Shown: piece after piece, positions 18,001-27,000 of the stretch | How positions within the stretch are numbered: the first letter of the stretch is position 1 | How the letters are laid out: every line of letters starts with the position of its first letter | Source: Escherichia coli | GTDB lineage: Bacteria > Pseudomonadota > Gammaproteobacteria > Enterobacterales > Enterobacteriaceae | Direction: 5' to 3' (one strand) | NCBI RefSeq assembly: GCF_030013205.1 | Contig: NZ_CP122651.1 | DNA: 31,040 nucleotides | Position numbers: made by a program

Positions 18001-21000
18001 AACCTATTCACTGCCTGTCCTGTGGACAGACAGATATGCACCTCCCACCGCAAGCGGCGGGCCCCGACCAGAGCTACTTTAGTTACAACACACAAACAGA
18101 ACCACCAGGAAAAACCCCGGTCCCACGCAGAACTGAAGCCACAAAGCCCCTCCCCCATAACTGAAAAGCGGCCCCGCCCCGGCCCTTCGGGCCGGAACAG
18201 AGTCGCTTTCAATTATGAATGTTGTAACTACATCATCATCGCTGTCAGTCTTCTGGCTGGAAGTATTGAGTACACGCTCGTAAGCGGCCCTGACGGCCCG
18301 CTAACGCGGAGATACGCCCCGACTGCGGGTAAACCCTTGTCGGGACCACTCCGACCGCGCACAGAAGCTCTATCATGGCTGAAAGCAGGTATGGTCTGGC
18401 AGGGCTGGGGGTGGGTAAGGTGAAATCTATCAATCAGTACCGGCTTACGCCGGGCTTCGGCGGTTTTACTCCGGTATCATATGAAACAACAGAATGCCGC
18501 CTTACATGCCGCTGACGCGGCATCTGTCAACTTAAGTCAAAACAAAAAACCAACAAATTTAGTCGTTAAAGGGGAGCCCGCAGAATTCGGAAAAAATCGT
18601 ACGCTAAGGTTTTCCGGGCATCCGTAAGGGCCGAAACTTCCCGTCTTCCAGTCTGCGGCTCTGCCGCCAGACGTAATCGCCGGTTAGGTTGATGTGCTCC
18701 CAGCCCAGCGGCGACAGGAATTGCAGCAGCTCGCCGTCCACCGGCTTGCCGGCCTCGACCAACCCCTGGGTGGCGCGTTCCAGGTACACCGTGTTCCACA
18801 GCACGATAGCCGCCGTCACCAGGTTGAGGCCGCTGGCCCGGTAGCGCTGCTGCTCGAAGCTCCGATCCCTGATTTCCCCAAGGCGGTTGAAGAACACCGC
18901 CCTGGCCAGCGAGTTGCGCGCCTCACCTTTGTTCAGGCCGGCATGCACGCGGCGGCGCAGTTCAACACTTTGCAGCCAGTCCAGGATGAACAGCGTGCGC
19001 TCGATCCGGCCCAGCTCGCGCAGGGCCACGGCCAGTCCGTTCTGGCGCGGGTAGCTGCCGAGCTTGCGCAGCATCAGCGAGGCGGTGACGGTGCCCTGCT
19101 TGATCGATAGGAATTTAAATCCCCAAAAGACTAAAAAAGCACCACAAAACGGATATTTCTTCAACACCCCTTGTGCACCATATGAGCGGAAACGACTATT
19201 AAACAGGATGACACTGATTGATACAGGGTATGAATGGCGGTTTTTTGCTCCGTTTCCGGTAAAATGGACGCAACTTCCCCTCTGCGGCTCTCAGCCGCAC
19301 ACCTGCTGTCGTGCCAGTCGCTCATGCATCAGGACCAGCTCTGCCAGTCGGTAACCCCGCTTCAGCCCCGTAAAACGCATCTGACTTCCGCACAGAATGC
19401 ACTTCAGCGGGTCAACCTTCAGTAACCTCTGATACATCCCTCTCCACCTGATTTGCATCGCCGTCTTTCTCACCGTCTCCGTTATGACGTACACAACTTC
19501 TTCCAGTAAGCGGCGCTTCACCGGACTCAGGAAACCGTAGTACCTCACCATACGGAACCCCTTATCTGCTACATGCCAGGAGAACCTTTCCATGAACTCA
19601 TCTCCACTCATCAACAGGTATTCTTCCCGTTTTGTACGGTGACTGTTGTAACGCAGACCGATTTCATCCTGACCGGCATAATGCTCCAGCCGACTCATCG
19701 GCACCGGTGGCTTTTTCAGGTAAGAGCCGAAGTACACCGCCACATGTGTGGCGTTATCCATCACCCTGGATATGTTGACATTCCAGCCGCGGCGGTAATG
19801 CGTGTCCAGGAAGCAATTCCAGTCCCGTTTGCTGTTTCCTTCCACTGCCAGTTCATCCGGTATTACCAGCTCCGGGTATTTCCGGGACAGTAGCCGCGTT
19901 ATCCGGTAACGCCACATGCTCATCACCTTACGGGCGTAAAAATGAAGATTTTTCCAGGTGTGGCCCGACGTCACACCACCGGCAGTTGTCGATAAATGGA
20001 TATGCGGATGCCACTGCTGGTCACGCCCCCATGTGTGGATCACCGTGAATATCCCCGGCTCCACATCTGTCTGATGGCAGATTTCCAGTATCACATCCGC
20101 TGCAATGCGGCTCATCTCTGCCAGTAACCACCGGTTGTGGAACACCAGGGACCAGTACTGGCAGGGAAGTGTGAACACAATATGCTGCCACGGGCAGTCG
20201 GGGACCAGGCTCAGCAGATACTGTATCCACTGTGCGCCAGCCTTCACTCCGCAGTGCGGGCAGGAGCGACTTTTACACCGGAAGCAGACCTTTTTTGTGT
20301 GGCAACAGTCCGGAGATGAACAGCACCACTGTGTGTACCCCATCAGCGTGGTTCCGCACGCCATGATTTTTGTCACCGACTCAATGACTACCGGACGCAC
20401 TGAACCTTCCGGTTGTTTCTCCAGCCAGTTAAGCCAGCGGTTTCCCTGCTGAAAAATGTCGGCAAAACGGGGAAGCATCAGAAGGGCGGGGGGACTCCGT
20501 CCGGCCAGTGAACCGTGCCACACTCCGGGCAGTACATGCCGCCGGCACTGATACCGGCAAGAATGGTTGCAAACTCCCGCTCCGTACAGCGGGCTATTTC
20601 CGGATACCCTTCGTCATCGACACGAACAAACCAGAAGACCAGCTTTTTGTTTCCTGCATCCAGAAAGAACGGAATACCCAGGTCAGCGCAGCACTCAACG
20701 GCATCGTCAAAATTATCAAAGCGCAGAACTTCAGCGTCTTCTTCGTCAAAAAAATCATCCGGATGAAGTTTCACAACATAGCGGGGAAGTTTGCTTCTTT
20801 GTGGTGCGGGTTTGCGTTTACGGGGTTTAGCTGAACGGGCCATATAACTACCTGAAAGACAATGACATTATCTTTTTTTATAACGGTAATTCCAGACCAT
20901 GACAAGCCGCAGCCGCCAGGCTGCCTACTCGATCGAGCTGGCCAGGCGCAGGATGTCGTCCCAGTGGGCACGCACGTGCTTGATGTTCAGGGTGCCGCCG

Positions 21001-24000: not shown

Positions 24001-27000
24001 CTGTTCCGTTGTGCCTCAAAGCCCATTTCTGTCAGGCTGAAATCTATAACCTTCGCGGGCATGTGTCAAAAAATGGGAAAGCAGACTCTATTCTGACGAA
24101 GCGGCGCGGCCCTGCCTGACATCAAGTTAGGGTATAGCCTAGATTGACATGCGCGATGCAACCCTTAACTTGCTTGCACCTATCGTTTCCATGCTAGCTT
24201 TATCGTAACGCTCAAGAAATTGGGCTTAATGCCGAAAACAATAAAATAAAACAGCCAACCCTTGAGGTTCTTATGCGCCAGAATTTACCAGTGACGGGTC
24301 GAAACTTAGAACTCCCAAAAGATGCCAATATTCTTTCGACTACCTCCCCTCAAAGCCATATCACGTACGTTAATCCTGACTTCATTAAAATCAGTGGTTT
24401 CACTGAGGAAGAACTATTAGGCCAGCCTCACAACATCGTAAGACACCCAGATATGCCGCCTGCTGCATTTGAGCATATGTGGAGTACATTAAAATCTGGC
24501 CGCTCATGGATGGGGCTAGTAAAAAATCGCTGTAAAAATGGCGACCACTATTGGGTAAGTGCTTATGTAACGCCAATAGCTAAGAATGGTTCGATTGTTG
24601 AATACCAGTCTGTAAGGACCAAGCCTGAACCTGAGCAGGTTTTGGCTGCGGAAAAATTATATGCTCAATTGAGAAGCGGGAAGGCCGCGAGGCCGAAATT
24701 GGCTGCTAGCTTTTCCGTGAAAATACTCTTGCTCATATGGGGTAGTATTATATCAAGCGCAATGGCTGCCGGCATGCTTACTGATACATCAATAAGCAGC
24801 TTATTGTTAGCCACTTTAATGTCAGGAAGCTTAAGCTCTGTTAGTGTTTTGGCTATTCTCTCTCCTCTTGGAAGACTGGTTGAAAGAGCCAGGAATATTT
24901 CCAATAACCCATTAAGTCAATCCCTCTACACTGGGCGCACCGATGAGTTTGGCCAAATAGAGTTTGCTTTACGAATGATGCAAGCTGAAACAGGCGCCAT
25001 AGTAGGTCGCATAGGTGATGCATCAAATCGGCTTAGCGAACACACCCGAGGCCTACTAAAGGATATTGAGTCAAGCAATGTACTTACAGTTGAGCAGCAG
25101 GCAGAGACAGATCAAATAGCAACGGCAGTAAACCAAATGGTGGCAAGCATTCAAGAGGTTGCGAGCAATGCACAGCATGCTGCAGATGCGGCCGGAAGAG
25201 CAGACACTGAGACGGCATCTGGCCAGCGTCTGGTAGCCCACACAAGCCAGTCAATCACTGCCCTTGAAGGTGAAATTAGGCAAGCCACTCAGGTTATTCA
25301 TGAGCTTGAAGGTCAAAGTAACGAGATATCAAAAGTTCTTGACGTTATACGAGGGATCGCCGAGCAAACGAATTTGTTGGCACTCAACGCAGCAATTGAG
25401 GCCGCGCGTGCTGGTGAGCAGGGGCGTGGTTTTGCTGTTGTCGCCGATGAGGTTCGCAGTCTTGCTGCTCGCACACAGCAATCGACAACGGATATTCAAA
25501 GCATGATCAGCGCTCTACAAGAGCGAGCGCAATCCGCTGTTACAGTCATGGAGCAAAGTAGTCGGCAAGCGCACACGAGTGTAGCTCACGCAGAGGAAGC
25601 AGCTACAGCTCTTGATGGAATTGGCCAACGCGTTAACGAAATTACCGACATGAACGCGCAAATAGCGACTGCGGTCGAGCAGCAGGGAGCAGTAAGTGAA
25701 GACATAAACCGCAGTATTATCAATATACGCGATGCTGCTGATACCAATGTACAGACCGGGCAGAATAATTTGCAAAGTGCGAAATCTGTCGCTCAGTTAA
25801 CTAGCGCTCTGAGCGAACTGGCAAAACAGTTTTGGGAAAAACGAGGATAACGCTTTTCAGTATCTCGACAGGGATAACTTACTTTACCATCGGTTATCCC
25901 TTTTAGCCGCACAAATTTTAGCCATGGCTTTTCAGGAAGTCAGGGCTATCAGAATGGCCTTAGAAAGCCTAGTCAAAGAGCTGTCACGAGAACACCGTTA
26001 GCTTAGCGTACGATTTTTTCCGAATTCTGCGGTTCCCCCTTAAAAAATCTAAATCCTGTAACGGTGTCACGTTTTTAGTTAGTTTGTTAGTTTATTTGTT
26101 TGTTGTGTATAATGAATGCACAATCACCAGAACAGGAGCAGGTTTATGCGTCCAGCAATATTTGAACCACAGCAGATTATTGAGGCAGGTCTGGCATTAC
26201 AGGCCGAAGGGCGGAATATCACCGGATTCGCGCTACGTAACCGCGTTGGTGGTGGTAATCCCGGGCGGCTTAAGCAGGTGTGGGATGAATATATCTCGTC
26301 GCAGACGGAAGTCACCACCGGGCCGGTGGCCGAGCTGCCTGTTGAAGTGGCCGAAGAGGTTAAGGCCGTATCGTCAGCACTGGCCGAACGTATCAGCCAG
26401 TTAGCTACCGAGTTAAATGATAAAGCCGTCAGAGCCGCCGAACGGCGGGTAGCCGAAGTGACCCGCGCGGCGGGTGAACAGACGACACAGGCCGAGCGCG
26501 AGCTGGCCGACGCCGCACAGACCGTTGACGATTTGGAAGAAACACTGGATACCCTGCGTGAAGAACACAGCGCCACACTGGCGGCGCTGGACGACAGCCG
26601 GAGGAAAGAGCAGGCTCAGGCCGTCGAACTGGCTCAACTACGGGAACGCCTGGCCGCGACAGAGAGACTGCTGGGGGAATCAGAGAAGGCAGGAAAAGAG
26701 GCCGCAGAGCAGCACCGGCAGCAACAGGCAGACCTGCAAAAACGGCTTGATGCAGCCGGGAATAAACTGGCCGAAGCCACTACGCGTCATGCGACTGACC
26801 TGCAGGGTGTCAGGGAGCAGTACGCCGGAGAGGTTAAGGAGCTTAAGGCGCAACATGCCCGGAACGAAAGCGACCTGCAAAGGCGGCTTGATGCTGCCGA
26901 GAAAAAACTGGCCGAGGCCATTACGAACCATGCTATTGAGATTAAGGGTATCAAAGAGCAGCACACTGGCGAAATTAAAGAGCTTAAGGCACAACATGCC

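Follow-up and report, generated by a model that had tools for sequence, protein, structure and literature searches.

A Tn1722-like transposon interrupted by IS91 beside the IncFII origin of an Escherichia coli sepA plasmid is probably a derivative of Tn1721

The window analysed here is an entire circular IncFII sepA plasmid of 31,040 bp, and its features around the replication origin are listed in Table 1. We mapped repA from the annotation of identical sequence in NZ_CP122720.1 and NZ_CP122646.1. The DnaA box TTATCCACA has a single exact match in the window, 176 nt past the stop codon of repA, with an A+T-rich stretch after it; from general knowledge of R1/R100 origins, we take this box to be the start of oriR. 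A transposon end is located ~0.7 kb past that start, confirming the original prediction of a transposon downstream of IncFII repA and oriR. The element is 7,469 bp long and has the architecture IRL-mcp-res-tnpR-tnpA-IRR, which amounts to 5,640 bp without the IS91 that it carries.

Table 1. Features of the transposon and the adjoining origin region (window positions; IR, inverted repeat)
Feature	Position	Strand	Details
IncFII repA	16816..17673	+	mapped from annotation of identical sequence
DnaA box	17849..17857	+	TTATCCACA
Target duplication TTAAA, left copy	18566..18570		directly outside left IR
38-bp terminal IR, tnpA-proximal type (IRR)	18571..18608	+	GGGGAGCCCGCAGAATTCGGAAAAAATCGTACGCTAAG
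tnpA 3' fragment, codons 824-988 and stop	18604..19102	-	100% identical to intact Tn1722/Tn1721 tnpA
CTTG, IS91 target tetranucleotide	19099..19102	+	adjoins oriIS; read at the junction
Complete IS91, 1829 bp	19103..20931	-	oriIS at 19103; terIS ends CTCG 20928-20931
IS91 tnpA, HUH/Y2 rolling-circle transposase, 395 aa	19291..20478	-	Pfam; WP_086186060.1 in identical sequence
IS91 orf121, 121 aa	20478..20843	-	stop overlaps tnpA start (TGATG)
terIS subterminal hairpin	20909..20924	+	GCAGCC-GCCA-GGCTGC; 6-bp stem, DNA fold -7.1 kcal/mol
tnpA 5' fragment	20932..23399	-	in-silico reconstruction and Pfam
1,254-bp arm of Tn1721 direct repeat	20932..22185		twice in NZ_CP122646.1, 100%, 5,488 bp apart
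tnpR, serine resolvase, 186 aa	23403..23963	-	Pfam Resolvase and HTH_7; identical to WP_001161490.1
res region, 309 bp	23964..24272		between tnpR and mcp; position as in Tn1721
mcp (orfI), PAS-HAMP-MCP signalling protein, 525 aa	24273..25850	+	identical to WP_001323889.1
38-bp terminal IR, mcp-proximal (IRL)	26002..26039	-	reverse complement GGGGGAACCGCAGAATTCGGAAAAAATCGTACGCTAAG
Target duplication TTAAA, right copy	26040..26044		directly outside right IR

The two terminal IRs are the only copies in the window and match each other at 35 of 38 positions. The tnpA-proximal repeat is identical to the Tn1721 IR printed in PMC7864471 and the mcp-proximal repeat to the printed IR of Tn6433, a relative of Tn1721 (PMC13085002). 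On re-inspection, the predicted 38-bp repeats of Tn1721/Tn1722 type and the 5-bp TTAAA repeat flanking them were thus upheld. We also built the empty site in silico by joining the left flank, one TTAAA and the right flank into an 800-bp query, which was matched over its full length at 100% identity by five pig E. coli plasmids, each with a single TTAAA. Because the rebuilt junction occurs in related plasmids, the duplication is beyond chance and the unoccupied site is real.

Between the IRs, the element retains tnpR, res and the PAS-containing mcp, as had been proposed, with both genes intact on either side of the res region. The mcp product matches Pfam MCPsignal (6.9e-44) as well as PAS_3 and HAMP. 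The putative res region is 100% identical to intact copies and contains divergent promoter-like sites (two sigma-70-like sites compared with 0.3 expected).

The tnpA open reading frame is broken at codon 823/824 by IS91. NZ_CP122720.1 has an intact Tn1722 at this site, to which window positions 18570-19107 and 20924-26040 align with an insert of 1829 bp between them. In-silico removal of 19103-20931 restores a 988-aa ORF whose product matches the intact TnpA of NZ_CP122646.1 exactly, so the split of tnpA by IS91 that was first read from the sequence is borne out. The restored protein is the ubiquitous WP_001138014.1, a transposase of the large DDE TnpA type (Pfam DUF4158 and DDE_Tnp_Tn3) in which the QLxxLR motif reported for Tn1721 TnpA is present as QLCLLR. 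It aligns end to end with the Tn4430 TnpA (E=8.5e-230), and alignment to E881 of that protein points to E883 as the catalytic Glu. This residue lies beyond the IS91 break, which therefore parts the inferred catalytic Glu from its two Asp residues; the 3' fragment matches positions 244-389 of the DDE_Tnp_Tn3 profile. The 5' fragment encodes TnpA residues 1-823, then Glu and a stop 6 nt into IS91, giving an 824-aa product.

Judging from its sequence, the 823-aa truncated TnpA, which is without the catalytic Glu and the C-terminal tail, would have lost transposase activity, and the element would consequently be non-autonomous. The original description of the transposon as immobilised is accurate in that, with tnpA split, it should not transpose on its own, but is too strong given that both IRs and res are intact, such that the element could be mobilised in trans by a Tn1721-type TnpA present in the same cell. 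A second potential route is offered by IS91, whose terIS end points toward the remainder of the transposon, so that one-ended transposition of IS91 could carry the transposon along.

The IS91 copy itself shows no substantive difference from IS91 (HUH/Y2), with which it shares the 1829-bp length, the orf121 overlap, CTTG and CTCG at its ends, the terIS hairpin and insertion without target duplication. Its transposase matches Pfam Y2_Tnp (8.6e-39) and, at the N terminus, Zn_Tnp_IS91 (8.7e-19). On the plus strand, CTTG is followed by ATCGATAGG at one junction and CCTACTCG by ATCGAG at the other, compared with CTTGATCGAG in the intact sequence. This comparison leaves the IS91 boundaries ambiguous by 6 nt (GATCGA), which we settled by other copies and by the published rule of CTTG or GTTC beside oriIS and CTCG at terIS (PMC13181058). 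The same source describes the stop-start overlap of orf121 and tnpA as IS91-specific, and its description of a hairpin is matched here by the one 7 nt from the CTCG cleavage site. Of the subterminal palindromes, that at terIS forms a clear hairpin; those predicted at oriIS fold weakly and no better than shuffled sequence. Copies of IS91 that are 99.9-100% identical were found in many pig ETEC plasmids. Two candidates for the same or a near-matching junction were rejected: the IS91 of CP122702.1 is a 98% isoform at a neighbouring GTTC, and the plasmids of ETEC1732 and ETEC1734 have another IS91-family insertion, located 55 bp away at a GTTC.

The element has the same 38-bp IRs, 5-bp duplication and gene order, IRL-mcp(orfI)-res-tnpR-tnpA-IRR, as Tn1722, the 'minor transposon' of Tn1721 (Tn3 family; TnAs1-family according to PGAP), and differs in the interruption of tnpA by IS91. 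The full Tn1721 has three IRs, a truncated transposase and 5-bp direct repeats (PMC5736529). Such an element is annotated, with tetA/tetR and an intact tnpA, at the same TTAAA in NZ_CP122646.1, E. coli ETEC4079 plasmid unnamed3 (36,528 bp). The two plasmids are 100% identical, backbone included, bar a single 5,488-bp unit that is absent from the window: window positions 1-22185 equal 1596-23780 of NZ_CP122646.1 at 100%, positions 20924-29445 equal 28007-36528 and positions 29446-31040 equal 1-1595. Only two mismatches were reported, both due to BLAST overextension into the IS91 end. NZ_CP122646.1 carries the same IS91 at the same CTTG, where it lies inside tnpA', the redundant truncated outer remnant.

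The difference in length between the two plasmids (36,528 - 31,040 = 5,488 bp) is the same as the spacing at which the Tn1721 in NZ_CP122646.1 carries its 1,786-bp direct repeats, which are 100% identical, and the window aligns to both copies of the 1,254-bp arm of this repeat. The absent unit comprises a pecM-like gene, tetA, tetR, the inner IR and the 3' end of the intact tnpA, leaving the window without the tet(A)/tetR module, a third IR, an intact transposase and tetracycline resistance. If the unit was deleted by a crossover, this must have fallen within the 1,254-bp arm, where the 100% identity of the repeat copies makes its position unmappable by polymorphisms. Deletion of the tet unit by the resolvase was considered and rejected, the element having one res only.

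Based on these comparisons, we consider it likely that the element is a Tn1721 derivative, with the architecture of Tn1722 and a complete IS91 in tnpA, which arose by deletion of the tet module from a Tn1721::IS91. In the order of events that we infer, an 11-kb Tn1721 would first have transposed replicatively into TTAAA ~0.7 kb past the start of oriR, duplicating 5 bp. IS91 would then have inserted by rolling-circle transposition beside CTTG in tnpA', the truncated and non-functional copy that bounds the tet module on its outer side, a harmless step in that it probably first hit a dead gene copy. Finally, one homologous crossover within the plasmid molecule, between the two identical 1,254-bp direct repeats flanking IS91 at its terIS end, would have removed the 5,488-bp unit, which includes tetA and tetR, the inner IR and the 3' portion of the sole intact tnpA. 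The outcome would be a tetracycline-sensitive Tn1722-like element whose only copy of tnpA is the one interrupted by IS91. The IR at 18571-18608 is then most likely the outer IRRII of the former Tn1721 and not the IRRI of a Tn1722 that had transposed alone. The label 'Tn1722-like' in the original prediction accordingly holds for the architecture but probably not for the original arrival, given the full Tn1721 at the same site in NZ_CP122646.1.

A different history, in which a 5.6-kb Tn1722 entered TTAAA, IS91 hit its functional tnpA and the sister plasmid gained its tet module from another Tn1721, appears unlikely. The first insertion could have been Tn1722, since an intact IS91-free Tn1722 occupies the same site in related plasmids such as NZ_CP122720.1, and a PLSDB search for a Tn1721 without IS91 at precisely this TTAAA found none. 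Independent IS91-family insertions in the same part of the Tn1721 tnpA also occur elsewhere, at the GTTC 55 bp away in the plasmids of ETEC1732 and ETEC4063. However, converting the window into NZ_CP122646.1 would call for another replicon bearing Tn1721 and for two crossovers, of which one falls within the 1,254-bp arm, and there are zero base differences across the aligned sequence of the two plasmids, whereas the reverse direction takes just one intramolecular crossover between identical direct repeats. Parsimony thus favors deletion over acquisition as the direction of change.

It is highly improbable that the window is an assembly artefact, with a true plasmid of 36.5 kb carrying Tn1721::IS91 from which the assembler dropped the tet unit by collapsing the 1.25-kb repeat: a difference of exactly one repeat unit from NZ_CP122646.1 is the expected signature of repeat collapse, and neither PLSDB nor the complete RefSeq E. 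coli genomes contain the exact arrangement in one piece, but long reads span a 1.25-kb repeat easily, and the repeat boundary at 22185 is crossed unbroken both by the short-read draft contig GCA_943790555.1 (reads ERR9829667; possibly from the window's own isolate), which shows 100% identity to window positions 20857-29399, and by a Logan assembly of ERR9829667. Both also encode the exact 824-aa truncated product, which requires a full-length upstream tnpA joined to IS91. A literature search for the ETEC strain names gave no match.

CP056843.1 and NZ_CP045999.1 were considered as IS91-free Tn1721 at the same site and rejected, as they hold independent insertions at nearby positions. Together with the window, they represent three independent Tn1721-type insertions, all lying a few tens of bp from one another on related backbones, and transposons of this type may repeatedly use the short intergenic stretch just past the IncFII oriR as a landing pad. 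Targeting of DnaN and the replication fork has been reported for the TnpA of Tn1721, which clustered insertions would fit. The 823-aa fragment, which keeps the DNA- and DnaN-binding N-terminal part, might aid target immunity or inhibit incoming Tn1721. We regard the combined proposal, a landing pad downstream of oriR plus a TnpA fragment that still binds IRs and acts in immunity or as a dominant negative, as speculative and doubtful.

The element and the mechanism are both known, and the case is one of routine mobile-element decay, so its significance is chiefly one of bookkeeping. According to the Tn1721 history, a pig ETEC sepA virulence plasmid would have lost its resistance module and its sole working transposase, probably in one recombination step, whereby the IS91 insertion, harmless as long as it sat in a redundant copy of the gene, would have become disabling. 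For plasmid annotation, the lesson is that a 'Tn1722' found beside an origin may be what is left of a Tn1721, and that a disrupted tnpA alone leaves the order of events unsettled.

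Re-reading the window, we found the two 38-bp inverted repeats of the transposon to be identical at 35 of 38 positions. The left repeat sequence has been given as a Tn1721 inverted repeat (PMC7864471) and the right one as that of Tn6433, a Tn1721 relative (PMC13085002). Using an 800-bp query in which the left flank, a single TTAAA and the right flank were joined in silico, we searched PLSDB and recovered the empty site at 100% over 800/800 bp in five pig E. coli plasmids (NZ_CP080234.1, CP057092.1, NZ_CP122943.1, NZ_CP122607.1 and NZ_CP122603.1). Because the unoccupied site exists in these plasmids, the insertion was a clean transposition, as the original prediction had read from the two repeats and the 5-bp duplication. 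The predicted retention of tnpR, res and a PAS-bearing mcp was also borne out, the genes by their ORFs and Pfam matches and the putative res by its position, with the 309-bp tnpR–mcp gap lying where res lies in Tn1721. Two divergent promoter-like sites lie in this gap, where 0.3 would be expected.

Features of the transposon and alignment of the window to NZ_CP122646.1
Feature	Window position	Strand	Detail
TTAAA duplication	18566-18570 and 26040-26044		directly abuts the outer side of each inverted repeat
Left inverted repeat (38 bp)	18571-18608		GGGGAGCCCGCAGAATTCGGAAAAAATCGTACGCTAAG
tnpA 3' fragment	18604-19102, within ORF 18604-19167	minus	DDE_Tnp_Tn3 profile positions 244-389
IS91-type transposase		minus	Pfam Y2_Tnp and Zn_Tnp_IS91
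orf121 of IS91 (121 aa)		minus	ORF call
tnpA 5' fragment ORF	20925-23399	minus	DUF4158 and DDE_Tnp_Tn3 positions 1-246
tnpR	23403-23963	minus	Pfam Resolvase and HTH_7
mcp (525-aa PAS-HAMP-MCP protein)	24273-25850	plus	ORF and Pfam
Right inverted repeat (38 bp)	26002-26039		reverse complement GGGGGAACCGCAGAATTCGGAAAAAATCGTACGCTAAG
Alignment block 1	1-22185		NZ_CP122646.1 1596-23780, 100%
Alignment block 2	20924-29445		NZ_CP122646.1 28007-36528
Alignment block 3	29446-31040		NZ_CP122646.1 1-1595

The split of tnpA by IS91 was confirmed by alignment to NZ_CP122720.1, in which an intact Tn1722 occupies the same TTAAA site and the window carries a 1829-bp insert. Uninterrupted tnpA reads CCCTGCTTGATCGAGCTGG at the insertion point, and the window junctions read CCCTGCTTG/ATCGATAGGAATTT and GGCTGCCTACTCG/ATCGAGCTGG. 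Junction comparison alone leaves the borders ambiguous by 6 nt; other IS91 copies, together with the published rule that 5'-CTTG or GTTC adjoins oriIS, that 5'-CTCG is the terIS cleavage site and that no target is duplicated (PMC13181058), place IS91 at 19103-20931. The insertion sequence appears complete. It bears further hallmarks of IS91: orf121 and tnpA overlap by TGATG, and at terIS a 6-bp hairpin sits 7 nt away from the CTCG cleavage site. Its oriIS palindromes fold no better than shuffled sequence. When 19103-20931 is removed in silico, the ORF is again 988 aa long and matches the intact NZ_CP122646.1 TnpA exactly, compared to residues 1-823 plus one Glu as encoded in the window. The restored protein aligns over its full length with Tn4430 TnpA (E=8.5e-230), whose catalytic triad is D679, D751 and E881 (PMC9579193). 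Because E881 aligns to E883, past the IS91 break, there is good reason to believe that autonomous transposition has been lost.

Two side observations concern related copies of these elements. In the otherwise intact Tn1722 of NZ_CP122720.1, 24 nt of tnpA (3205-6195) are tandemly duplicated in frame, which repeats LDELLKLK near residue 200 and gives a 996-aa TnpA. In two other pig ETEC plasmids, NZ_CP122827.1 (near 9216) and CP122702.1 (near 3837), Tn1721 tnpA has been hit independently by an IS91-family element at a GTTC (window-equivalent 20983-20986) 55 bp from the CTTG used in the window; ColE1-like rop/mbe DNA and a further IS91 come after this insertion in ETEC4063. Separately, NZ_CP119736.1 (near 142-164) carries a head-to-tail junction (…GCCTACTCGATCGATAGGAATTT…) in which the terIS end of one IS91 copy directly joins the oriIS end of the next, resembling the junctions of circles or tandem copies that have been described in rolling-circle transposition.

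The only PLSDB record containing IS91 and both tnpA junctions at 100% was NZ_CP122646.1, plasmid unnamed3 (36,528 bp) of E. coli ETEC4079 from a pig in Belgium. Its annotation has a full Tn1721 at the same site, consisting in order of the outer inverted repeat and a truncated tnpA' with IS91 inside; pecM-like genes, tetA and tetR; the inner inverted repeat and an intact tnpA; and tnpR, mcp and the mcp-side repeat (IRL). Tn1721 is Tn1722 plus a tet region closing with a truncated transposase gene and a third inverted repeat (PMC5736529). The window and NZ_CP122646.1 differ by exactly 5,488 bp, with two mismatches in all, both due to BLAST overextension into the IS91 end. This length is the spacing of two 1,786-bp direct repeats (inverted repeat plus tnpA 3' end), 100% identical, that flank the tet module in NZ_CP122646.1, the outer of which is cut by IS91 into 532-bp and 1,254-bp arms. 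A single crossover within the 1,254-bp arm (20932-22185) of Tn1721::IS91 would yield exactly the window; from one within the 532-bp arm, the product would be an intact Tn1722 free of IS91, like that of NZ_CP122720.1. The Tn1721 tet module is lost or amplified through recombination between its repeats.

Deletion of the tet unit from a form like NZ_CP122646.1 is quite probable, since one intramolecular event between identical repeats suffices. In the reverse direction, a gain of the tet module by the window form would require a second Tn1721 donor and two crossovers, and would have to leave zero base differences across the aligned sequence; still, the direction of the change is not proven, because the repeats in NZ_CP122646.1 lack any polymorphism and PLSDB holds no IS91-free Tn1721 at the exact TTAAA site. 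Collapse of the window during assembly is countered by a GCA_943790555.1 draft contig and the Logan assembly of run ERR9829667, which encode the exact 824-aa truncated TnpA and match the window at 100%, continuing into IS91 without a break at the 22185 repeat boundary, although both may come from the window's own isolate. The predicted structure, a Tn1722-like element with an IS91-split tnpA, stands, but the element is most likely a tet-deleted Tn1721::IS91 rather than a Tn1722 struck in a working transposase gene.

The three-block alignment also indicates that the window is a complete 31,040-bp circle, its last base joining its first, with the sepA coding sequence starting at position 1. This serine-protease autotransporter toxin gene (1-4092) lies between two inverted 769-bp IS1 copies (4236-5004 and 29733-30501; 99.87% identical) in a composite-transposon-like arrangement, and a TIR-domain protein gene (4994-5635) directly adjoins one copy. 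The plasmid also carries a yacAB toxin–antitoxin pair (27359-27906), and ~2 kb from a DNA methylase gene to traX (9541-11568), where the PLSDB table of the identical plasmid lists no gene, may hold tra-region pseudogenes.

Insertion just downstream of the IncFII origin was likewise supported. Past the end of repA (17673), the window has its sole exact DnaA box (TTATCCACA, 17849-17857) and then an A+T-rich stretch, in agreement with the IncFII oriR layout of R1 and R100, and the transposon end lies ~0.7 kb beyond. At homologous intergenic positions in two further IncFII-type plasmids, CP056843.1 (near 1434) and NZ_CP045999.1 (near 1431), Tn1721 has inserted independently, with other flanking bases, a few tens of bp from this site; this suggests a regional hot spot for Tn1721 downstream of oriR. 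These insertions fit the reported preference of Tn3-family elements, including Tn1721, for plasmids and for regions near replication origins or termini via TnpA–DnaN contact (PMC11417375). The QLxxLR motif in the element's TnpA is QLCLLR.

Of the proposed immobilization, the inability to transpose alone is supported by the position of the catalytic Glu, but outright immobility is not. Because the element keeps intact inverted repeats, res and tnpR, it should be a possible substrate for TnpA supplied in trans by any Tn1721-type element in the same cell. Failure to terminate at terIS co-mobilizes adjacent DNA, at 1-10% for IS91 in earlier work cited in PMC13181058 and at 11-53% in that paper's own assays; here terIS points toward the tnpA 5' fragment, tnpR, res and mcp, which IS91 could take along to another CTTG or GTTC. 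Overall, the original prediction was correct but describes ordinary biology, in which transposon, insertion sequence and recombination are all known, and the sole substantive correction is the most likely origin of the element as a tet-deleted Tn1721::IS91.
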